A stretch of DNA of 62,585 nt, taken from positions 1 to 62,585 of IMG/VR virus record IMGVR_UViG_3300002035_000001, one strand, 5' to 3'. Source of the DNA: a virus. The notes below the pieces were generated by a model. That model saw nothing but the letters and a program-made list of their open reading frames with translations, did not search any database and was not told the origin of the DNA. Below are positions 3,423-34,350 of this stretch, piece by piece (the first letter of the stretch is position 1; each line of letters begins with the position of its first letter). A program made the translations under genes and the position numbers.

Positions 3423-4229
3423 ATGAATGTAAGTATAGTAAAAGACAGTATAAGTGAAGCAGGTGTTAGAATAACCACTTTTCATCTAAGGTACTGGAGA
3501 GCAATCCACTCAGAGCTAATGACTCATAGGGTATTTAGTAGAAATGCTCGATCCTCGAGAGCAGTTCCGGTGGCAACACTATTAAGCGAAGACAAGTTTA
3601 TCCCCCAGTTTGGTCTTAACAAGCCGGGGATGCAATCGACTGAGACTCCTAGCCCCGAGCTTCAAGCTAAATGGGAAAAAGAGTGGAACGAGCTTAGTGA
3701 TATTACTCGGGAGTATGTTAAGGCTTGGGGAGAAGAGGGTATGCACAAACAGCATGCTAATAGGCCTCTTGAGTGGTTTGGGTGGATTGATGTCCTAGTT
3801 ACTTCAACCTATTGGGATAATTTTTATGGACTACGTATCGATAGCTATGCCCAGCCGGAATTTGAAGAGTTAGCTACACTGATGCGGGCTGAGCAGAAGG
3901 GGTCTCATCCTCAATTACTCAAGCCCGGTCAATGGCATCTACCTTATATAACAGAAGATGACTTTAATCTATATCAACTCGAGCAGTTACAGAAACTATC
4001 AACTGCCCGGTGTGCTAGACTAAGTTATAGACCCTTTGATGGTCAGGATAGCTATGAAGCTGAGATGAGTAGGTATGAGAGGTTGGTAGTAAGTCAACCA
4101 GTCCATGCTTCCCCCGCAGAACATCAAGCAACTCCTCTAACCCAAGGGCAGGAAGGTAATACGGGTAATTTTCATGGATGGGTTCAGTACAGAAAGCTTC
4201 TTGACGATGAAGCTATTATGGAGAACTAG
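3423..4229 (+). CDS. thyX: Flavin-dependent thymidylate synthase ThyX-like
   Basis: THRVFSRNARSSRA matches the ThyX signature RHRxxSxxxxSxR except at the first residue. ASPAEH lies near the C-terminus. Confidence 0.75.
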   Translation: MNVSIVKDSISEAGVRITTFHLRYWRAIHSELMTHRVFSRNARSSRAVPVATLLSEDKFIPQFGLNKPGMQSTETPSPELQAKWEKEWNELSDITREYVKAWGEEGMHKQHANRPLEWFGWIDVLVTSTYWDNFYGLRIDSYAQPEFEELATLMRAEQKGSHPQLLKPGQWHLPYITEDDFNLYQLEQLQKLSTARCARLSYRPFDGQDSYEAEMSRYERLVVSQPVHASPAEHQATPLTQGQEGNTGNFHGWVQYRKLLDDEAIMEN

Positions 4230-6270: not shown

Positions 6271-7167
6271 TTAATCTGTGATGTCCCAGCCGGGCCTTAG
6301 GTCAATAAAGTTGGGATGACGAGGCTTATCCTTCTCCCCTACCTTCTGTTTCTTGCACTTCATTATTGCGCGGGCTTCCACCAACTCATCTCTTTGAAGC
6401 CAGAAGGACTTTCTCTGCTCAGCCGTAAATCCTCCGCCAACTCGGATCTCGACTTTATCCTTGAGGGTAAGGCCGATGAAGCCTCCAAGTGTCCCTTTTG
6501 GCTTTTTCCCTTTTTTCGATGACGACCTTTTGAGCTTCCCTGTCTTTTCCCTCTTCGCTTCATTGGTATTCTCCATCTCTTCGTAGTAACCAATAATGAT
6601 AGCTTCAAAATCTTCAAAAGGCTTTACCTTAAGCATCCCCTGTTGATTAAGAGTAGACTTACCTTGCTTATATTCTGCATCAGGATCCCGAGTAATAATA
6701 CCTTCAAAACCTCTCTCCAGGCACTCCTTAATATATTCTTCCAAATCCCAAAGATTATAGATTAACCGATACTCTAATGCTCTGATCCGAGGATTACCTG
6801 AAAGTCTAACTAACAGAGGAACATTATTAAGCCGGTCTATATAAGATTGCTGAGGCTCAAAGGTATCAAAGGCATAAAGATACCAATCAGGATCACCTTC
6901 TCGAGAGGTTAATCCACTCGAGGTCCGCTGCAGAACGCCTTTAGTGTTATATGCTCCACAGACGGCTTCAGTGTCTAAGATGCCCCGGGAAGGTAAGATG
7001 CCCCGGGTCTGAGACATAAAAGACTTGTTGGGAAATTCTGATAGCCGCGAAGTGTTAGCCCTGTGGGATAGGATACACCTAAACCCATCAATCTTAGGCA
7101 TAGCAATACAAGGAAATCTAACTAAGGTTAAGTCATCAACCTGGGCACCTTTCATAGGCCTCTTCAT
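6271..7167 (-). CDS. ATP-dependent DNA ligase
   Basis: Motif I KIDGFR, EGIITRD (motif IV-like) and LKVKPF (motif V-like). Confidence 0.85.
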   Translation of the reverse strand: MKRPMKGAQVDDLTLVRFPCIAMPKIDGFRCILSHRANTSRLSEFPNKSFMSQTRGILPSRGILDTEAVCGAYNTKGVLQRTSSGLTSREGDPDWYLYAFDTFEPQQSYIDRLNNVPLLVRLSGNPRIRALEYRLIYNLWDLEEYIKECLERGFEGIITRDPDAEYKQGKSTLNQQGMLKVKPFEDFEAIIIGYYEEMENTNEAKREKTGKLKRSSSKKGKKPKGTLGGFIGLTLKDKVEIRVGGGFTAEQRKSFWLQRDELVEARAIMKCKKQKVGEKDKPRHPNFIDLRPGWDITD

Positions 7168-8565: not shown

Positions 8566-9075
8566 CTAATCATTAAGTCCCAAGCAGTGAGGACAGTGTT
8601 TCCAACTTGTTCTACCATGAGGACAGGGAAGTTCAGCTTGATTATTACTACCTAGGGCATTTAGCGTCTGATAGTAATACTCATGAAGGAACCCCCGGGG
8701 AGCATGGCCGCCTCGACGACTAAGCCACAGAGCTCTGCCGGATCTGCCGTTTCCATCGGTAAAGGGATGTAGGATCTCGTACTCAAGATGTTGCTTCCAA
8801 GGATCCTGCTCAGCTAAGATGATGGTAAGTCTAGATCGGATGTCGGGCCCGGAGGAGGGCGGGACATGACTACCGACCTGCACCCCGGGCACCGAAGTCT
8901 TGTCGCGGAATACCGCATCGGGTTGGAGCACCGCGACAAGTTTAACTAATGTGTCTATAGTAGGCGTAGAAGCTAGGAACTGAAGGTGGGCATCTACTTC
9001 TTGGCGGGTAATGCCTGTGATCCCTTCAATCCTGTTACTCTCGGTAACAAAGGCTTCAATCATACTCATAGTCAT
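8566..9075 (-). CDS. fic: Fic-domain protein (AMPylase family) with an N-terminal inhibitory motif
   Basis: HPFTDGNGRSGR matches the Fic core HxFx(D/E)GNGRxxR. SNRIEG matches the inhibitory (S/T)xxxE(G/N). C-terminal CPHGRTSWKHCPHC. Confidence 0.85.
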   Translation of the reverse strand: MTMSMIEAFVTESNRIEGITGITRQEVDAHLQFLASTPTIDTLVKLVAVLQPDAVFRDKTSVPGVQVGSHVPPSSGPDIRSRLTIILAEQDPWKQHLEYEILHPFTDGNGRSGRALWLSRRGGHAPRGFLHEYYYQTLNALGSNNQAELPCPHGRTSWKHCPHCLGLND

Positions 9076-20737: not shown

Positions 20738-21229
20738 ATGATTGTAATTGAAGGTATGGATAATTCTGGTAAGAGTACATTGGCTCAATCAATGGCTTCT
20801 TATTTTAAGTTAATGGTGCAAGAAAGCGAAGGACCGCCACGTAGTGATGAAGAGATTAACGAGCGCGTTGATCGCTACGAAAACATGGAGGATCGCCTCT
20901 TTGTCAGGCACCCGGTTATATCTAATCAAATCTACGGAGCAGTAAGAGAAGAGGGAAACCCCATTACTCCTGGTCGACGTATTATTTTCTACGAGCAAGA
21001 GCCCACGCTTATATACTGTGATGCAGGCGATAGGGGCCTAGGGGGTCATGTCGAAAAGGACCATGATACCAAAGAACACCTTGAAGACGTTAATAATAAC
21101 TATGCAGAGCTACTTGAGCTCTACCGTCTTTGGGCCTCAGAGCATGCTCACTTTATTTACCGTATCGGCGATGATATGGACCAGTTCATTGCTACTGTAT
21201 ATTTCTACGAGCAATATAAAAACGCCTAA
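20738..21229 (+). CDS. P-loop deoxynucleoside-monophosphate kinase-like protein
   Basis: IEGMDNSGKST Walker A, as in dTMP/dNMP kinases; about 160 aa. Confidence 0.6.
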   Translation: MIVIEGMDNSGKSTLAQSMASYFKLMVQESEGPPRSDEEINERVDRYENMEDRLFVRHPVISNQIYGAVREEGNPITPGRRIIFYEQEPTLIYCDAGDRGLGGHVEKDHDTKEHLEDVNNNYAELLELYRLWASEHAHFIYRIGDDMDQFIATVYFYEQYKNA

Positions 21230-21243
21230 ATGAAAGGAAGATT

Positions 21244-22134
21244 ATGAAACCCACCCACCAGCATGCTGACGGGGGCCTCTATCGCTATGAGGGTCCTCAG
21301 TCTGCGAAACACCCCGATAATAACGAATGGATTGCGGGTATCCAGTACGTAGGAGAAGACGGCAAGTCTCGATGGACTACTAAGTCTCGATGGGACAAGA
21401 GGTTCAAGCAACTACCGGAATTCGAGCCTGTGGACCAGCAACTGATAGACGCAACGGACGAAGAGGGTAATGTTATAGCCTCCTTTAGTTTTGAGGTGGA
21501 GCAGGCGGGTGACGTTAGGTATATGCTTATTAAGGCTGCAGAACTTTGTGAGAAGAAAGGGGATCACTATCTTGCTGCAGTAATCAAGTCTCAGTCTGAG
21601 ATGGTTACACAAGGGCTTCATATTCGCTTTTCCGACTTCCCTGATATGATCGGGGATGTTAATGCCTTTCATGCTAAATTCGGCCAGGAGTATACAGGAA
21701 AGATCCGGATGCTTCCTCGGGACCTACACGAGTTTAGAACAAAGTTCCATGATGAGGAGACGGGCGAGTATTCACAGGAGTATGAGAACTTGGTGGACGC
21801 TGTTACTCGACAAGATCGCCGGGACATCATCAATGCTCTGGAACTTCAACTTGACGCCCTGGTGGATGCCGCTTGGGTAATACTAGGAACAGCGGACTTG
21901 CAATTCGGTAGACAGCCCTTTATCGAGGCTTGGAGAAGGGTGGTCACAGCTAATATGGCTAAGGTCAAAAAAGAAGTCGGTGTTAACCAGGGCACTGAAG
22001 ACAGCGGCCGTGAAGAGAAGTATGATATTGTTAAGCCTGCCGGTTGGGTTGCACCGGATCACCGAGACCTAGTCCAAGATAATGGTATCTTTGATGAGCT
22101 GTTCGGTACTGTAGAGGAGAAAGCTGATGGCTAA
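21244..22134 (+). CDS. DUF1653-like N-terminus fused to a MazG/HisE-like NTP pyrophosphohydrolase domain
   Basis: C-terminal half VNAFHAKFGQ...FHDEETGEY...LDALVDAAWVILGTADL...VVTANMAKV...KPAGWVAPD is a typical phage MazG-like pattern. Confidence 0.55.
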   Translation: MKPTHQHADGGLYRYEGPQSAKHPDNNEWIAGIQYVGEDGKSRWTTKSRWDKRFKQLPEFEPVDQQLIDATDEEGNVIASFSFEVEQAGDVRYMLIKAAELCEKKGDHYLAAVIKSQSEMVTQGLHIRFSDFPDMIGDVNAFHAKFGQEYTGKIRMLPRDLHEFRTKFHDEETGEYSQEYENLVDAVTRQDRRDIINALELQLDALVDAAWVILGTADLQFGRQPFIEAWRRVVTANMAKVKKEVGVNQGTEDSGREEKYDIVKPAGWVAPDHRDLVQDNGIFDELFGTVEEKADG

Positions 22135-22321
22135 TCCCATTATGAAATTCTTTAGTCATGCCCACTTACCCGATCACCTGAAAAAGGTATCCCGTCCTGT
22201 AGCAGAGCTTGCTACTGAAATGGAGGAGACTCTCCCCGACGGCCCAGAAAAGTCAGCGGGCATGAGGAAGTTACTGGAGGCAAAGGACTGCTTTGTCCGT
22301 GCTCGATTAGAGGAAGATTAG
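22127..22321 (+). CDS. Small hypothetical protein (64 aa)
   Basis: Overlaps the upstream stop; lies within the coupled operon. Confidence 0.5.
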   Translation: MANPIMKFFSHAHLPDHLKKVSRPVAELATEMEETLPDGPEKSAGMRKLLEAKDCFVRARLEED

Positions 22322-22325
22322 TACC

Positions 22326-23171
22326 ATGAAGAGTGAGTGGATTAAATTCTGTCTAAGGATGGCTAAAAGGGAGGCTGACCTATACAGCGGCTGTAGGAAA
22401 ATTATCCAAGGCAAGTCTCATACCTTCTACGATCTATGGGATAAGGAGGACCCACTCACTCTAGAGGACTGTGGCTATACTAAGTCTAAGATGTCCCACT
22501 TGATGAGGGGATACTTCCATCAAGAGTCTATTGATGCCGCCTTAAAGCTATGGAAGCTAAGGAGAAGCAAAACCTCCTACGGCTCTGTGGGCTTTACCTG
22601 CTATAATCACTTTATGAAGAATGATGCTGTTAAGAAGTCTAAGAGAGCATCGGTGATGGGACCTTGTATCCAAGCGGTAACCATAACCCAGATAAAAGGA
22701 TGCACAAAGGGAGGAAAAGCAGGATCCTATAGTATTGACGTGTTCTACCGGACAACCGAGCTACTTAAGAAATTCCCCGCAGACCTGGTCTTTATTCGAG
22801 AAGTACTGTTAAAGGACTTTGACTTTAGCAATATGGAATTCCAGGGGATGACTTGCCACTTTGCTAATATAACAGTCCATCCTCAGTACTTTGTTACTGC
22901 TATCCCTCATCTAAAGGATCCTCTAAAAGAGATGGATAAGATCCGAGACAAAGACCCCTATTTCTATAACTGGATAATAAAGTGGTCTGCTCGGTATCTC
23001 TGTGAAGAACACTATCGAGGCATCGCTAAGTTTGCTCAAGCTCTTAGGGTTAAAATGGATGCCGACAAAAGGATAAAAGGAAAGCCCCGTAAAAAACTTA
23101 TCAAATACCTAAGAAAAAACCATCCCGGCCATACCAAGGCCTATGAAGATCCTGAAGGAGAACAAGAATGA
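22326..23171 (+). CDS. Highly divergent ThyA-fold protein (activity unknown)
   Basis: SVMGPCIQ (Pro-Cys nucleophile context), then YRTTE 28 residues later in place of RSCD, FPAD with Asp at the N177-equivalent position, and HFANITVHPQY in place of DxHxY. Confidence 0.5.
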   Translation: MKSEWIKFCLRMAKREADLYSGCRKIIQGKSHTFYDLWDKEDPLTLEDCGYTKSKMSHLMRGYFHQESIDAALKLWKLRRSKTSYGSVGFTCYNHFMKNDAVKKSKRASVMGPCIQAVTITQIKGCTKGGKAGSYSIDVFYRTTELLKKFPADLVFIREVLLKDFDFSNMEFQGMTCHFANITVHPQYFVTAIPHLKDPLKEMDKIRDKDPYFYNWIIKWSARYLCEEHYRGIAKFAQALRVKMDADKRIKGKPRKKLIKYLRKNHPGHTKAYEDPEGEQE

Positions 23172-24055
23172 GAACAGTAGAGTTTGATAGTTTTAATGCC
23201 GCAATCGACCAGGCGGCTATACAGCTCCAGCACCGAAGTAAACTGGTCCACAGTGCTCGTTGGCAGGGAGCTGACATTAGCAGTAAACCCGAGATGGCTA
23301 CTCATGAGTTAACTCACGCTAGTTTTTCGGTGTCCTTGTCGGATGCTCGTACCGTTAATCCTGACCTTATACTTAGTCACTTAAGAAAGGACATAAGACC
23401 TAATTTACCTTGGGCGGATGACCACTTTGAGGAGAGAGTATGCGGAAGTCCTATTAACCCAGGAAGGGAGTGGGAAAATTGGCCTTTTGCTAAGTCTGCT
23501 TCTACCTTTTTAGATGAGCGGGGAAAGTTTAACCATAACTATATGGAGAGGTATTGGCCTAAGTTTGCTGGGGTAGTTAAGCATCCTACCCCCGACTATT
23601 CAGACCACGACGAGAGGTTAACTTATCTCGATAAACAGAAGGCGGATCAAGGCGGGATAAGTCCGCACCGGGGTATACTATATGATTATGGAGATTTGAA
23701 TGACGTTATCCAACTTCTTGCTACCGATCCCTATACCCGCCAAGCTTATCTTCCAATGTGGTTTCCTGAGGACACCGGCGGGGGAAGCAAGCGCGCACCG
23801 TGCACTATTGGGTACCACTTCCTTATGCGAGATGGACTACTTGATATCAACTACCATATCCGAAGCTGCGATTTCGTTCGGCATTTCCGCGACGACCTCT
23901 ACCTTACAGTCCGCCTCCTCCTGTGGGTCATCGACCAAGCAGCTAAAAGAGATAATAGATGGGCCGACGTTCGACCCGGTAAGTTTATCATGCAAATCGG
24001 CTCGCTCCATATCTTCAGAAATGATTACCAAATGCTATTCGGGAAGGCAAAGTAA
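23168..24055 (+). CDS. Deoxypyrimidine-monophosphate hydroxymethylase/ThyA-family enzyme, T4 gp42-like
   Basis: DPYTRQ, APCT nucleophile, IRSCD exactly 20 aa after the Cys, FRDD (Asp at the specificity position) and GSLHIFRNDY. Confidence 0.75.
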   Translation: MRTVEFDSFNAAIDQAAIQLQHRSKLVHSARWQGADISSKPEMATHELTHASFSVSLSDARTVNPDLILSHLRKDIRPNLPWADDHFEERVCGSPINPGREWENWPFAKSASTFLDERGKFNHNYMERYWPKFAGVVKHPTPDYSDHDERLTYLDKQKADQGGISPHRGILYDYGDLNDVIQLLATDPYTRQAYLPMWFPEDTGGGSKRAPCTIGYHFLMRDGLLDINYHIRSCDFVRHFRDDLYLTVRLLLWVIDQAAKRDNRWADVRPGKFIMQIGSLHIFRNDYQMLFGKAK

Positions 24056-24528
24056 TGGGACGTATAAGTAGAGAGGTTATGTTTATGCAGATGGCAAGAG
24101 TAGCGTCTTGTCGATCCACTTGCTTTCGCCTAAACGTAGGAGCTATTATTACTCGCAACCACCGGCCCGTAAGCGTAGGATGGAACGGCGCACCTTCTGG
24201 CGATCCCCACTGTGCGGGAAACAGTTGCCCAGGGATAGTACCGGGCAAGTGCGGTACTCTTCATGCTGAAGCTAATGCCATAGACAACGCGATGGGGATA
24301 GAGGCTTGTGACGAAGGATGGAATTTATATGTTACCCACAGCCCGTGCGAGAGGTGTGCAGAAAAGATACGAGATTGCGGGACTATAAGTAAAGTATTCT
24401 TTGAAGTACCCTATCGGAAGCCCGATGCTTTATATATTCTCCAGAAAGCGGGAATAGCGGTTTACGAAGTTACTGCTGCAGGATATGTTATAGAATACTT
24501 TTCCCGAGAGGTAGTTGACCTTCCATGA
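24055..24528 (+). CDS. dCMP deaminase (ComEB/Cd family)
   Basis: Zinc motifs LHAEANAI and SPCERCAEKI. Confidence 0.85.
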   Translation: MGRISREVMFMQMARVASCRSTCFRLNVGAIITRNHRPVSVGWNGAPSGDPHCAGNSCPGIVPGKCGTLHAEANAIDNAMGIEACDEGWNLYVTHSPCERCAEKIRDCGTISKVFFEVPYRKPDALYILQKAGIAVYEVTAAGYVIEYFSREVVDLP

Positions 24529-27077
24529 GTAAAAAGAAGATAATGGTGATTGGTGAAAGTCCTCGAATTAACCCGAGGGCAAAATCCATCCTCTATGATG
24601 CTATGAATAGTGTCGGTATAGAAGAGGACGACTTTCGGTGGATAGATGTTCTCGAAGAAGCTCCTCCTGAGGGAAAGAACATTACTAAGACCATGATAAA
24701 GAATGCTAGGGAAGCATTTCTCCAAAAGGTAAATAAGAAAAAACCTGAGTACATTGTTCTATTGGGTAATACTCCTTGTCAGGCTCTTCTAGAACTTACC
24801 GGCATCAGAAAGCTCCGAGGGAAGCCTGTAGAAAAAGATGGTAGAATAGTACTACCCATCCTTCATCCCAACCAAGCCCTCCATGATGATAAGTGGATAG
24901 ATATTATAGAAGGAGACCTGAGACGACTAAAGGAGTGTATGGAGTTTGGCGGGATCCCGGAGGAGAAAGAGCTTGACTTTGAGATTGTTGATACCGATAA
25001 AAAGGTAAAAGCTATGCTAAAGGACCTCTCAGGTACCGTTGCTATTGACCTTGAGACCAGTAGACTATACCCCTTCACTACTTTATTGGACGAGCTTGTT
25101 GCCTCCGGTCGTGCTTCACAGGATGCCATAAAGCAGCACAAGAGTACCCACAGCGGTAATCAGCCTCGAGTTGTAGCTATGCAGTTCGGTACTAGGAAGA
25201 AGCAATGGGTTGTTCCCATGGAGACTGCGGGCATTTGGAAAAAGGCTAAGCTAAAAAAGATTGTTAAGGCCTGCTCTCGAAAGTTAAAGAAGTGCTTCAC
25301 AGTATTCCACAACGGGAAGTTCGACTGCCTGTGGATGCTTACTCGGTTCGGTGTTAAGTGGAAGATTGACTTCGATACCATGCTAGCCCACTATCTCTTG
25401 GATGAAAATGACAGGCACGGCTTAAAGTACTTAGCTCAGAAATACCTAGGAGCCCCTGATTGGGATATCGACGGTGGTGTAAAGAATTCCTGGTCCAATG
25501 CTAATGCCAAGTATGCTGCCCATGATGTTTTCTATACAAGAAAGCTAAGGTTTATTCTTAAGAAGATGCTCGAGGATGACTATGACGTTAAAAGGGTTCA
25601 TGATAAGATAATGGTACCCTGTATCGAGATGTTTATAGAGGCGGAGCATAAGGGTGTTTATATAAACCTTGACAAGATGGATGATGCTGAGACCTATCTA
25701 AGAGAGGAGTTATCTACCGCCCTCAATAACCTTGAGAAGTGGTCGGGAAAAGCGAAGTTGGTAGATAAGAAAACAGGTAAAATAAACTGGGGGTCACCTA
25801 AGCAATTGGGGGATCTTCTTTTCAACGTACTAAAAATACCCAGTGTTGAAAAGACAGCAAGTGGAGCAGATAGTGTTAGCGAGTCCGTTTTACTCAGGAT
25901 CGACCATCCCATGGTTGGCGATCTTCTCAAGTTCAGGGCTGCACAGAAGCAGCTCTCCTCATTCATCGAAGGTTGGCGACCTTACCTTGACACTGAAGGA
26001 CGCCTCCATCCAGTATTCAAACTCCACGGTACCGTTACCGGGAGACTTAGTTGTGAGCATCCCAATCTACAACAGGTTCCCCGAGACCCGCGTATTAGAA
26101 CGCTTATTACGGCCCCTGAAGGATGGACCATGGTCGAGATGGATCTCAGCCAGATCGAGCTGCGCGTTGCGGCAGAGTTGGCAGACGAGCACAATATGCT
26201 TCACGCCTTCAACACGGGAGTGGACGTTCACTGGCTCACTGCAATTAGAGAGATAGAACGCGGCGCAGGATATAAGAAAGAAATGATAAAAACTGTTAAG
26301 CGGGCATCGGGTAAAAAGATGTCTTATTCCGAAGCAGTCGAGTATATCCTTGAACTAGGCCCAGGCCCCGCCGAGAAGCTCATGAACCTGTGGAAAGAAC
26401 TAAGGAAAAAGGCTAAAGCAATTAACTTCGGATATCTATACGGAATGTGGTGGAAGAAGTTTAAGATATATGCCCGAGACAACTATGGAGTTGATGTTAC
26501 AGATGACCAAGCTCAGGCAAGTAGGGAAGCCTTCTTTGAACTCTACCCTAAGTTTCCTAAGTGGCACGAGAAGCAAAGAAGGTTTGCTCAGGTGAATGGC
26601 TACGTTAGGTCTCTGAGCGGTCGTAAACGTCGATTACCTAAAGCGATGGCGGGACGCGATAGCCCAGAGCGACGTGAGGCGCAACGTCAGGCGATTAATA
26701 GTCCTGTTCAATCGTTTGCTAACGAGTTAAACCTAATGGCAGCCTTACAGATGCGCGAGGAATTTAATGCTGACTGGTTCAGATTAGTAGGGACCGTTCA
26801 TGACGCGGTACTTCTAGAAGTAAGGAATGATAAAGTAGAAGAAGTCTTCCATAGGGGACTTGAGATTATGGCGGCACCCGAGCTATTGAAAGTATTTGAA
26901 ATTGAGCTTAGTGTACCGATTGAAGCAGAAGGCGAACTAGGCCCGTGGGGCGCAGGAAAGGATTTAGAAACATGGCTAAAAGCTCAAAACGACAACCAAC
27001 CATTAAAGAAAAGCGAAATAGCAAGAGGCGTAAAAAGGGCAAGAAAACGAATGGAAAGCAAGAAAGCCGCGGCATAG
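24525..27077 (+). CDS. polA: Family A DNA polymerase with a 3'-5' exonuclease domain and an N-terminal degenerate UDG-like domain
   Basis: Exonuclease motifs AIDLET, HNGKFD and YAAHD. Polymerase motifs DLSQIELRVAA, RKKAKAINFGYLYG and VHDAVL. The N-terminus VIGESPR...ILHPNQ resembles family-4 UDG. Confidence 0.9.
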   Translation: MSKKKIMVIGESPRINPRAKSILYDAMNSVGIEEDDFRWIDVLEEAPPEGKNITKTMIKNAREAFLQKVNKKKPEYIVLLGNTPCQALLELTGIRKLRGKPVEKDGRIVLPILHPNQALHDDKWIDIIEGDLRRLKECMEFGGIPEEKELDFEIVDTDKKVKAMLKDLSGTVAIDLETSRLYPFTTLLDELVASGRASQDAIKQHKSTHSGNQPRVVAMQFGTRKKQWVVPMETAGIWKKAKLKKIVKACSRKLKKCFTVFHNGKFDCLWMLTRFGVKWKIDFDTMLAHYLLDENDRHGLKYLAQKYLGAPDWDIDGGVKNSWSNANAKYAAHDVFYTRKLRFILKKMLEDDYDVKRVHDKIMVPCIEMFIEAEHKGVYINLDKMDDAETYLREELSTALNNLEKWSGKAKLVDKKTGKINWGSPKQLGDLLFNVLKIPSVEKTASGADSVSESVLLRIDHPMVGDLLKFRAAQKQLSSFIEGWRPYLDTEGRLHPVFKLHGTVTGRLSCEHPNLQQVPRDPRIRTLITAPEGWTMVEMDLSQIELRVAAELADEHNMLHAFNTGVDVHWLTAIREIERGAGYKKEMIKTVKRASGKKMSYSEAVEYILELGPGPAEKLMNLWKELRKKAKAINFGYLYGMWWKKFKIYARDNYGVDVTDDQAQASREAFFELYPKFPKWHEKQRRFAQVNGYVRSLSGRKRRLPKAMAGRDSPERREAQRQAINSPVQSFANELNLMAALQMREEFNADWFRLVGTVHDAVLLEVRNDKVEEVFHRGLEIMAAPELLKVFEIELSVPIEAEGELGPWGAGKDLETWLKAQNDNQPLKKSEIARGVKRARKRMESKKAAA

Positions 27078-33088: not shown

Positions 33089-33697
33089 ATGATTACTGAA
33101 CTTTTCTTAGTTGGATCAACTGCCTTTTGGGTCTTGTTGGCATTCGGCTTTCTTCTGTTGTCCACAGCTGCTTCTCGAGGGCACTGGGGGCTTCCGGCTT
33201 TCTGTACCGTAATACTCGGGGCATTGTTCTTTGGATTTACAGACCTATCGTCTCATAGTTCTTCTTGGGATCCTCTACAGCTCTTCCTAGGGTTAGTCAT
33301 CTACCTACTAGCAGGGTCAGTATGGTCTTTATATAAGTGGTTAAAGCTTACTCAAGAGATTAGGCTGAGGATTGAAGGAATAAAGAACGACTATACCGAT
33401 GATGCTTCAATGAGAGCCTACGGTCTTCGTGACCACTTTGTTCCCAATGACATCGGGTCTACCGCTCCCATGACTATTCCTCCTACGCCAGGAGAATTCC
33501 ATTCACGTATTACAGGATGGATTGCTTTTTGGCCTGCCTGCATGACATCCGGAATATTTTGTAATGTTCTACCCTGGCTATGGAGTTTGATATCAGGTAT
33601 CTTTAGTTTCGTAGCCAAGAAACTAAGGTCAATAATGGACAGGATAAGCAATAGCTCCTTTGAGGACTATCAGCCTCTCGAAAAGAAAGAAGACTAA
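33089..33697 (+). CDS. Polytopic membrane protein
   Basis: At least 4 hydrophobic helices; GGAGGA RBS. Confidence 0.55.
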   Translation: MITELFLVGSTAFWVLLAFGFLLLSTAASRGHWGLPAFCTVILGALFFGFTDLSSHSSSWDPLQLFLGLVIYLLAGSVWSLYKWLKLTQEIRLRIEGIKNDYTDDASMRAYGLRDHFVPNDIGSTAPMTIPPTPGEFHSRITGWIAFWPACMTSGIFCNVLPWLWSLISGIFSFVAKKLRSIMDRISNSSFEDYQPLEKKED

Positions 33698-34350
33698 TGG
33701 ACCCCTATAAAGTATTGGGGATAAAGAAGACAGCTACGGCAAAGGGGATAAAGTCTGCTTACCGTAAGCTGTCTTCTGTTCATCACCCTGACAAGCCCTC
33801 GGGAAATGAAGACAAGTTTAAGGAATTGTCTGAAGCTTACAAGGTCTTGAAGGATCCTAAACGCCGAGAGCGATATGATACCACAGGTAGAACCTCCGAG
33901 TCCAAAGCTACCCCTGATCGCATCCGAGCTTTTATACAGACTACGGTAAGAACCTTGGTGGAAGCAGTCAGGCAAGACGGGACTAGCGATGACCCCGTAT
34001 TCGAGAATATCAAGGATAAGGTAATAATGAGTCTCTTGGGGGCAAGAACCCAGATAAAGAATGATATGTTTAACTCTCAAAGGAAACTAGAGAGAACTCA
34101 AAGATTAATAGAGAGATTTAAGCTAAAGGAGACGGACACGTTCGATCCCGTTCAAGACTCCTTGGTAAGTGAGAAGAAGCGGATACAGTCCGAGCTTGAA
34201 GCTCAAGAAGATGCTCTAGAATTAAGTATGGCTGTGGAGAAGGTATTAAAGACCTACGATTATGAAGTCGGCCCCGGACCGGAGGGACAGTCAAGCCCGG
34301 GACCAACACGCCGCCGCAGCGGACCTCTTTTCGTGACCTTCCAGGGCTAG
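33697..34350 (+). CDS. J-domain (DnaJ-like) protein
   Basis: DPYKVLGIKKTATAKGIKSAYRKLSSVHHPDK with the HPD tripeptide; TAATG coupling. Confidence 0.85.
   Translation: MDPYKVLGIKKTATAKGIKSAYRKLSSVHHPDKPSGNEDKFKELSEAYKVLKDPKRRERYDTTGRTSESKATPDRIRAFIQTTVRTLVEAVRQDGTSDDPVFENIKDKVIMSLLGARTQIKNDMFNSQRKLERTQRLIERFKLKETDTFDPVQDSLVSEKKRIQSELEAQEDALELSMAVEKVLKTYDYEVGPGPEGQSSPGPTRRRSGPLFVTFQG

Follow-up and report, generated by a model that had tools for sequence, protein, structure and literature searches.

We analysed a stretch of viral DNA of 62,585 bp (IMG/VR record IMGVR_UViG_3300002035_000001, positions 1 to 62,585; hereafter the window), and focused on the gene at 22326-23171, which we call the target. 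The target belongs to the known superfamily of thymidylate synthase (ThyA) and deoxycytidine monophosphate (dCMP) hydroxymethylase, in which it represents a new branch, strongly remodelled and so far without annotation; it is paired with a second member of this superfamily, the partner, which is encoded directly downstream. We propose that the target serves as a second catalyst in a pathway for modifying cytosine at C5 before replication, probably without using folate, and that it works on the product of the partner or in a mixed dimer with it. We hold this proposal to be somewhat likelier right than wrong. The target gene is real and conserved, and it is preceded by a GAGGA Shine-Dalgarno-like site. 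The window is an entire metagenomic contig and has a typical siphophage layout, with the structural module on the minus strand and the replication module on the plus strand. The features on which the argument rests are as follows.

22326-23171, plus strand: target gene, ATG start, 281 residues, basic; predicted to adopt a stripped-down thymidylate synthase/dCMP hydroxymethylase fold.
22488-22514, plus strand: codons of Lys55 to Tyr63; Lys55, Leu59 and Tyr63 share one face of the predicted helix 53-63.
22665-22667, plus strand: codon of Cys114, the predicted nucleophile, at the position of E. coli ThyA Cys146 and T4 gp42 Cys148.
22749-22760, plus strand: codons of Arg142-Thr-Thr-Glu145, the counterpart of ThyA Arg166-Ser-Cys-Asp169.
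22782-22784, plus strand: codon of Asp153, at the base-specificity position (ThyA Asn177, gp42 Asp179).
23155-23171, plus strand: coupling junction, an AAGGAG ribosome-binding site within the codons of the acidic tail of the target, followed by ATGA.
23168-24055, plus strand: partner gene, 295 residues, ThyA family of the gp42/MilA type; matches PF00303 at 4.6e-8 and PHROG 160.

The superfamily fold of the target was confirmed by structure prediction. An AlphaFold2 model built from a 24-sequence alignment had a mean predicted local distance difference test value of 85.3 and a predicted TM-score (pTM) of 0.81, the loop at residues 105-110 being the sole poor region. Foldseek comparison of the model with the PDB yielded 56 matches at E <= 1e-3. 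All 50 best listed matches were structures of thymidylate synthases, dCMP hydroxymethylases or the dCMP hydroxylase AfhB, with probabilities of 0.99-1.00. The top match was 9iqu, AfhB of phage HY126 with bound dCMP (E 9.7e-6, TMt 0.55), and 9iqc ranked sixth (TMt 0.54); 6l18, 1b5d and 6a9a (T4 dCMP hydroxymethylase) and many ThyA structures were also listed. In the BFVD collection, the best matches were uncharacterised proteins, led by the family member of Pseudomonas phage PMBT14 (TM 0.73-0.78), and annotated thymidylate synthases and gp42 homologues came next in the ranking. A preliminary description of this DNA had threaded the target onto ThyA by eye, and the Foldseek check bore out the fold.

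The fold call rests on structure prediction and on the conservation pattern because the sequence-only statistics are weak. The target protein had no match in Pfam, PF00303 included, even at E <= 1, and six further family members and three actinophage positional homologues had none at E <= 0.1. NCBIfam gave no match for the target. The PDB sequences returned nothing relevant for it in phmmer and hmmsearch runs with the single sequence and with profiles of 24 and 58 sequences. The target matched PHROG 34294, a group of unknown function, at 3.3e-7, and other members matched the same group weakly.

Conservation was counted over 112 distinct family sequences with 22-79% identity. Only five of the 281 positions were invariant, namely Lys55, Tyr63, Cys114, Arg142 and Asp153. 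Position 145 was Glu in 110 sequences and Asp in two, with Asn in none; Pro preceded Cys114 in 91, and the residue after Arg142 was Thr or Ser in the family, at the second position of the R-S-x-D motif. Lys55 and Tyr63 have no assigned counterpart in ThyA. The family profile was aligned by hhalign with E. coli ThyA, with the partner and with a 14-sequence ThyA alignment (P of about 0.01-0.02, probability 2-4%, 52-78 columns). The resulting register places Cys114 at partner Cys212 and ThyA Cys146, Arg142 at partner Arg232 and ThyA Arg166, Glu145 at partner Asp235 and ThyA Asp169, and Asp153 at partner Asp243 and ThyA Asn177. The secondary structure of the models runs in the same order. Cys114 is predicted to open strand 115-124 after a flexible loop, as the equivalent Cys does in the partner model, and in both models a flexible loop is followed by the Cys, a strand, a hairpin, a strand ending in R-x-x-E/D, a short turn and a helix near the Asp. 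Asp at ThyA position 177 (gp42 179) is the determinant of specificity for cytosine over uracil (PMC8670742, PMC6400193), and cytosine is therefore the base expected for the target.

The by-eye register of the preliminary description, which relied on Pro-Cys, YRTTE and FPAD, was reproduced by hhalign and is backed by the conservation among the 112 homologues. Its hairpin, proposed to be 8 residues longer than in ThyA, agrees with the 27 residues found from Cys to Arg as compared with 19. Two of its finer assignments had to be given up. The KSKRAS loop, equated there with the DSRR context of ThyA, is not conserved in distant members and is a low-confidence loop immediately before the Cys. The shared order of helix, Arg, strand, loop and Cys suggests instead that the DSRR equivalent is more likely Leu-Arg79-Arg80-Ser; Arg79 is present in 85 and Arg80 in 31 of the 112 members. 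The stretch HFANITVHPQY had been read as GD.H.Y through His185 and Tyr188, whereas hhalign puts Asn181, Thr183 and His185 at ThyA D205, H207 and Y209.

The target is heavily trimmed relative to its superfamily. Its core comprises about 185 residues, compared with 246-264 in gp42 and ThyA. Between the N-terminal sheet and the strand preceding the Cys loop it has two helices only (53-63 and 66-80), in a region where ThyA and the partner have 60-85 extra residues. In ThyA and gp42, this extra segment bears the folate p-aminobenzoate crevice (Trp80 and Trp83; gp42 Ile81 and Trp82) and the Tyr94 base (PMC6400193). The hhalign alignment covers residues 104-193 of the target and leaves the region of Glu58, Trp80, Trp83 and Tyr94 unaligned. 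The folate segment has probably been deleted, and the conserved His65-x-Glu67-Ser68 may be a remnant of, or a substitute for, ThyA His57-Glu58. At the other end, the target has gained a bundle of five Lys/Arg-rich helices (residues of about 186-265), which is followed by an acidic tail. The median isoelectric point (pI) of the family is 9.26, as compared with 6.26 for the partner subfamily, 5.6 for E. coli ThyA and 5.8 for T4 gp42, and R24, K25, K55, K148 and K149 are each more than 80% conserved.

With AfhB structures at ranks 1 and 6 and the folate segment seemingly missing, the target could be a flavin-dependent dCMP 5-hydroxylase that stands alone, or a different oxidase of the AfhB/RB69 gp48 type that needs no folate, and it would then make a further, alternative form of modified dCMP independently of the partner. 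Flavin-using ThyA homologues that hydroxylate dCMP are established (PMC13326640). Several findings make this assignment very unlikely. The AfhB-like enzymes, unlike the target family, can be recognised as ThyA homologues from their sequences; the partner fits AfhB better (TMt 0.72) than the target does (TMt 0.55). No gene for a glycosyltransferase or for sugar activation was found among the approximately 46 open reading frames (ORFs) scanned in the window, and the strict coupling to the partner, presented below, argues against independence. The diagnostic signature of the 5hodCMP synthases consists of D169N plus an acidic residue at Leu143 (PMC13326640). L143E is not seen in the target, where Met111 stands three residues before Cys114. 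Membership in the 5hodCMP synthases was rejected, with Glu145 in 110 of 112 sequences and Asn in none.

The preliminary description had called the target an orphan, which does not hold. A word-index search with 90% clustering found 882 homologues, and a profile search of 1.84 billion representatives gave 256 family representatives at 50% identity, 70 of them with E <1e-30. The best 120 of the 882 homologues were 68-80% identical over their full length, many of them on 55-67-kb contigs. Among 185,579 species genomes of cellular organisms there were four matches, all on contigs of metagenome-assembled genomes (MAGs), and the family is essentially phage-restricted. The four MAG contigs were binned as Phenylobacterium, Gammaproteobacteria and WWE3. 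One of them, at 42,669 bp, has the same size as an IMG/VR viral contig, and is therefore probably phage DNA binned into a MAG.

In a collection of annotated phages, 18 records contained a homologue of the target. They included the Brevundimonas phages Strzyga and Polewnik (56%), the Desulfofustis phage LS06-2018-MD02 and two Manatee Spring assemblies; the Pseudomonas phages PMBT14, Almagne, Lebethron and STP12, the Stutzerimonas phage STP9 and the Yersinia phage P744; and the Serratia phages Serbin, Opt-155 and Tlacuache. Two phage records carry the annotation 'pyrimidine hmase synthase' for the target. These 18 records are exactly the 18 best matches of the partner.

The genomic association of the two genes is close. 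When IMG/VR was scanned for the target, 55 loci with 36-78% identity were found, and the partner lay downstream on the same strand in all 54 that had downstream sequence. The intergenic gap was exactly -4 in 28 of about 58 pairs, counted over the IMG/VR loci and the cultured-phage loci L001-L003. A reciprocal scan seeded with the partner found 432 relatives; among the best 80, which were kept, the target was present in 73. In the window the junction reads GAAGGAGAACAAGAATGA. The ATGA overlap at 23168-23171 noticed earlier is there, formed by the partner ATG at 23168-23170 and the target TGA at 23169-23171, and AAGGAG is placed 7 nt upstream of the partner ATG. The functional coupling of target and partner is well supported. 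The earlier suggestion that two ThyA-fold genes act together thus gains strong support from the co-occurrence in both scans, the 18 shared records and the ATGA overlap. Its further idea, that a cytosine nucleotide may undergo two C5 chemistries, is a reasonable one, because both proteins keep the Cys nucleophile and the Asp at the cytosine position. In two partner-seeded loci (L086 and L100), the target homologue is located about 4.5 kb downstream of the partner, so adjacency is usual but not absolute.

The partner had been described as gp42-like, and its matches, model and signature make 'gp42-like, cytosine-specific' a fair label. Apart from its PF00303 match, its best PDB sequence match was the dCMP-methylating N229D mutant of L. 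casei thymidylate synthase. The AlphaFold2 model (pTM 0.82) had MilA as best Foldseek match at 4e-11, with TMt 0.72 to AfhB and 0.60 to T4 dCMP hydroxymethylase. In ThyA numbering, the partner signature consists of R126 kept, R127Q, L143R, C146, H147T/S, R166, S167, D169, N177D, D205S/N, H207 and Y209F; Trp83 and Tyr94 are kept, and position 80 is mostly Trp. The partner in the window has H147T and D205S and keeps W80, W83 and Y94. The signature is constant over more than 60 loci, actinophages included. With an invariant Gln at Arg127 and an Arg at Leu143 (residues 191-212), the partner may be a non-standard hydroxymethylase. MAFFT alignment put an Asn at the Glu58 position of the partner, yet an invariant His86-Phe-Glu-Glu89 comes next, and the register is uncertain here (partner residues 76-92). 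One partner homologue of 387 residues (P0367) has an insertion of about 120 residues between 'FL' and 'FNHNY'. It carries the LAGLIDADG-like motif 'LAAMVDADGSF', which suggests an intein or a homing endonuclease.

The altered arginine pair of the partner brings up another explanation, in which the target would have no catalytic role and would serve as a pseudoenzyme, regulator or scaffold subunit. Through the ThyA sheet it would form a dimer with the partner and donate residues such as Arg79 to it, or it would anchor the partner to the machinery of replication or of dNTP synthesis. ThyA-fold dimers share Arg126' and Arg127' across their interface (PMC6400193), and the partner subfamily has invariantly lost Arg127. 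The translational coupling, the strict co-occurrence, the opposite charges of the two proteins and the loss of much of the canonical core in the target also fit a subunit of this kind. Pseudoenzymes, however, normally lose their nucleophile. The target family has kept Cys114, Arg142 and Asp153 without exception, and Glu145 almost without exception, down to 22% identity, and the actinophage branch still has the Cys, the Arg and the Asp. The signature of the partner is, moreover, the same in loci without the target. We consider a purely non-catalytic role quite unlikely.

Seven of the 80 partner-seeded loci lacked the target, four of them having little or no upstream DNA. In the remaining three (L126, L133 and L136), the partner signature was unchanged. 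The slot 5' of the partner, after the MazG/dUTPase gene, was occupied by a C5 cytosine DNA methylase in L126 (3887-5005) and L136 (3441-4694), with PF00145 matches at 2e-15 and 6e-18. L133 has an N6/N4 methylase in the slot upstream of the partner. The presence of a methylase in the target slot may reflect functional displacement or coincidence. An asparagine-synthase-type amidotransferase is encoded directly 5' of the methylase slot in L136. The obligate heterodimer considered in the preliminary description is weakened by these three loci.

The methylase loci and the charge of the target point to a different substrate. In this alternative, the target acts on polynucleotide DNA, where it would flip out cytosine or a partner-derived 5-substituted cytosine and perform post-replicative C5 chemistry through attack of Cys114 on C6. 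The median pI sets the family apart from the acidic partner, ThyA and gp42, the conserved R24, K25, K55, K148 and K149 exceed what a single phosphate needs, and the added C-terminal domain is helical and rich in Lys and Arg. The PF00145 methylase, which uses the same Cys-C6 chemistry, fills the slot in two of the three informative target-less loci. These methylase loci are, however, just two, and phage replication modules often carry methylase genes as mobile insertions; the purpose of the basic charge could also be to hold the acidic partner. Binding of a 5'-monophosphate is suggested by Arg142 and by the gp42-like register, and the gene lies amid nucleotide-pool enzymes and is translationally coupled to an enzyme of the mononucleotide type. 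We know of no ThyA-fold enzyme that acts on DNA. An action on DNA is accordingly unlikely in our judgement; if true, the target would be the first ThyA-fold enzyme to act on a polynucleotide.

The pairing extends to actinophages. The partner subfamily reaches phages of Gordonia (68 records), Mycobacterium (Muddy and FF47), Streptomyces and Microbacterium. In the three actinophage loci compared (L004, which is Muddy gp49-gp44, L005 and L006), the gene order is kinase, dUTPase, hypothetical protein, ThyA-like protein and PolA. The hypothetical protein, of about 300 residues, adjoins the partner upstream; it is gp47 in Muddy (where the partner is gp46), gp77 in KimJongPhill and gp44 in Survivors. 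These proteins match PHROG 13667, of unknown function, at 1e-75 to 6e-162, and one family member matches both PHROG 34294 and PHROG 13667. Alignment of the actinophage group with the 112-sequence target profile by hhalign gave a probability of 85% and E 6e-6 over 131 columns, pairing 'GSCMLS' with 'GPCIQS' and 'SRT' with 'YRT', with an Asp at the expected spacing. By these profile alignments, the actinophage proteins are distant homologues of the target in which the putative catalytic Cys, Arg and Asp persist. Homology and synteny together indicate that the two-gene module is old and widespread.

The two genes are located within a nucleotide-metabolism cassette, whose other members in the window, together with a thymidylate synthase gene located elsewhere in it, are listed here.

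20738-21229, plus strand: P-loop deoxynucleoside monophosphate (dNMP) kinase, thymidylate-kinase-like, first gene of the cassette; PHROG 761 at 8.8e-9, weak Pfam and TIGR matches to dTMP kinase.
21244-22134, plus strand: MazG-like nucleoside triphosphate (NTP) pyrophosphohydrolase with an N-terminal extension; PHROG 671 at 6.7e-17.
22127-22321, plus strand: ORF of 64 residues, overlapping the MazG stop by 8 nt; PHROG 1761 at 7.5e-31, unknown function.
24055-24528, plus strand: dCMP deaminase, kept downstream of the pair in relatives; PF00383 at 7e-19, PHROG 174 at 1e-39.
24525-27077, plus strand: family A DNA polymerase with a 3'-5' exonuclease domain, downstream end of the cassette; N-terminal domain of the uracil-DNA glycosylase (UDG) superfamily, PF03167 at 4.3e-8.
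3423-4229, plus strand: flavin-dependent thymidylate synthase ThyX; PF02511 at 1.3e-8, TIGR02170 at 1.7e-11.

This order is conserved. In annotated phages, a thymidylate-kinase-like kinase is followed by a MazG/dUTPase-type pyrophosphatase, the target, a 'thymidylate synthase', a cytidine/dCMP deaminase, DNA polymerase I, a Cas4-type exonuclease and Sak4. In relatives a PRA-PH/MazG gene occupies the MazG slot, and the kinase position is likewise conserved. Even distant family members (22-30% identity) stand in the same cassette, sometimes beside ThyX. Statistically, the domains with the strongest association to cytosine-modified phage contigs are ThyA homologues with Asp177, MazG-type PRA-PH and dCMP deaminase (PMC8670742). 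The ThyX of the window supplies dTMP, which makes both ThyA-fold proteins dispensable for the synthesis of thymidylate. The role of a 'thymidylate synthase substitute' was rejected for the target on the basis of Asp153 and of ThyX in the same genome. The window genome thus encodes three predicted pyrimidine-C5 enzymes (ThyX, target and partner). The 64-residue ORF between the MazG-like gene and the target is found only in the few close relatives L012, L013 and L019, and the fusion of PolA with a UDG-superfamily domain recurs in distant relatives of the cassette.

In the mechanism that we favour, the cassette, with its MazG-type pyrophosphohydrolase, two ThyA-fold proteins, dNMP kinase and dCMP deaminase, would build a C5-modified deoxycytidine nucleotide before replication. 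A cytosine 5'-nucleotide would be held by the target through contacts of Arg142 with the phosphate and of Asp153 with N3/N4 of the base. Addition of Cys114 at C6 would make C5 reactive, as it does in ThyA and gp42. The target itself probably performs no one-carbon transfer from methylene-tetrahydrofolate, because it seems to lack the segment with Trp80/Trp83 and Tyr94. Two roles are the likeliest. The target could process the product of the partner; for example, 5-hydroxymethyl-dCMP might be turned back into its exocyclic methylene intermediate, which would then be reduced or attacked by another nucleophile. Alternatively, target and partner could form a mixed dimer.

The evidence behind this second-component proposal consists of the fold, the catalytic-type residues, the coupling and the context, and from these we infer the substrate, the non-use of folate, the order of steps and any physical complex. 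Several points weigh against the proposal. The similarity between target and ThyA sequences is not significant by itself, and the hhalign result serves to set the register, not to prove homology. With solved structures the target reaches moderate TM-scores (0.37-0.55), as would fit a thymidylate synthase fold that has been extensively rebuilt. The placement of Cys114 in a pocket and the probable deletion of the folate segment both follow from the order of predicted secondary structures, not from coordinates or measured geometry. An enzyme for mononucleotides would not usually be so strongly basic, and the charge fits binding of nucleic acids. The three loci that have the partner without the target indicate that the partner is not strictly dependent on it, and a Rosetta-stone search found no target-partner fusion among 390 retrieved proteins.

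Comparison with characterised enzymes shows what is shared and what is particular to the target. T4 gp42 (1b5d, 6a9a) resembles it in fold (Foldseek E 5e-5 to 6e-4, probability 1.0), in the Cys at the equivalent strand start, in the Arg of the RS.D motif, in the Asp at the cytosine position (gp42 Asp179) and in its phage nucleotide-metabolism setting with an NTP pyrophosphatase, a dNMP kinase and a dCMP deaminase. The two nevertheless have no detectable sequence homology. The target has Glu at gp42 Asp171 (ThyA Asp169) and no clear equivalent of Glu60, its pI is 9.3 compared with 5.8, and it has the extra basic helical domain at the C-terminus. The folate segment of gp42 (Ile81, Trp82, Tyr96 and Ser94) cannot be placed in the target, from which it is probably deleted, and the target is accompanied by a separate gp42-like enzyme.

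AfhB, RB69 gp48 and DLP3 gp80 (9iqu, 9iqc; PMC13326640) share with the target the Asp at the N177 position, and AfhB is its best structural match. They are small ThyA-fold dCMP enzymes with non-folate chemistry and a role in phage DNA modification. They differ in D169N, where the target has Glu145, and in L143E, and by sequence they are ordinary ThyA homologues; enzymes of the AfhB type are not described as paired with another ThyA-fold protein, and no arabinose or glycosyl-transfer genes were found among the window ORFs scanned. E. coli and L. casei ThyA share with the target the fold, the Pro-Cys loop, the Arg166 equivalent and the core of strand, hairpin, strand and helix J, and an obligate-dimer architecture is plausible for the target model as well. 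ThyA has Asn177 where the target has Asp, and the target has no PF00303 match and coexists with ThyX. About 60-80 core residues of ThyA, probably including Trp80, Trp83 and Tyr94, are missing in the target, and the C-terminal segment that closes over folate is replaced. MilA (5jnh), the CMP (cytidine monophosphate) hydroxymethylase of mildiomycin biosynthesis, is a cytosine-nucleotide-specific ThyA fold and the nearest solved structure to the partner. It resembles the partner, not the target, and acts on CMP by itself, as part of antibiotic biosynthesis in bacteria. The DNA cytosine-C5 methyltransferases (PF00145) use the covalent Cys-C6 chemistry proposed for the target and occupy its slot in two target-less loci. 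They have an unrelated Rossmann-type fold, depend on S-adenosylmethionine and use DNA as substrate, so the analogy is positional and chemical only.

Literature searches found no characterised system with paired ThyA-fold proteins, and no functional or DNA-modification data for the family or for pair-bearing phages such as P744, Serbin and the Brevundimonas phages. To our knowledge, every pre-replicative pyrimidine pathway characterised so far relies on just one ThyA homologue. Here, a second ThyA-fold protein, hidden from sequence searches, is tied to one gp42-like subfamily in hundreds of phage genomes. If catalytic, it would represent a new branch of the thymidylate synthase superfamily without a folate site, most likely with a new reaction or a new heteromeric organisation. 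A bolder idea is that the pair forms a two-component ThyA-fold system for a cytosine modification other than 5-methyl-, 5-hydroxymethyl- or 5-hydroxycytosine, with the target exchanging the substituent installed by the partner or acting on DNA. Such an exchange can be likened to the in-vitro derivatisation of 5-hydroxymethylcytosine by C5-methyltransferases. We regard this idea as tentative and improbable; were it true, the therapeutic mycobacteriophage Muddy (gp47/gp46) would share the same chemistry. Modified pyrimidines in phage DNA decide the success of restriction, CRISPR and other nuclease defences, and they are a source of enzymes for epigenetic sequencing. The hosts of pair-bearing phages are Alpha- and Gammaproteobacteria, and the distant form occurs in phages of Actinobacteria, the clinically used Muddy among them. 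Cultured carriers include Brevundimonas phages Strzyga and Polewnik, Serratia phage Serbin, Pseudomonas phage PMBT14, Yersinia phage P744 and Muddy.

Elsewhere in the window, a pyrimidine-dimer DNA glycosylase-like protein (PF03013) is encoded at 2108-2617 on the plus strand, and an ATP-dependent DNA ligase at 6271-7167 on the minus strand. The DNA ligase domain has likewise been linked to modified phage contigs (PMC8670742). A weak Fic/DOC match was found at 8566-9075 (minus strand), and a DnaJ-domain protein is encoded at 33697-34350 (plus strand).

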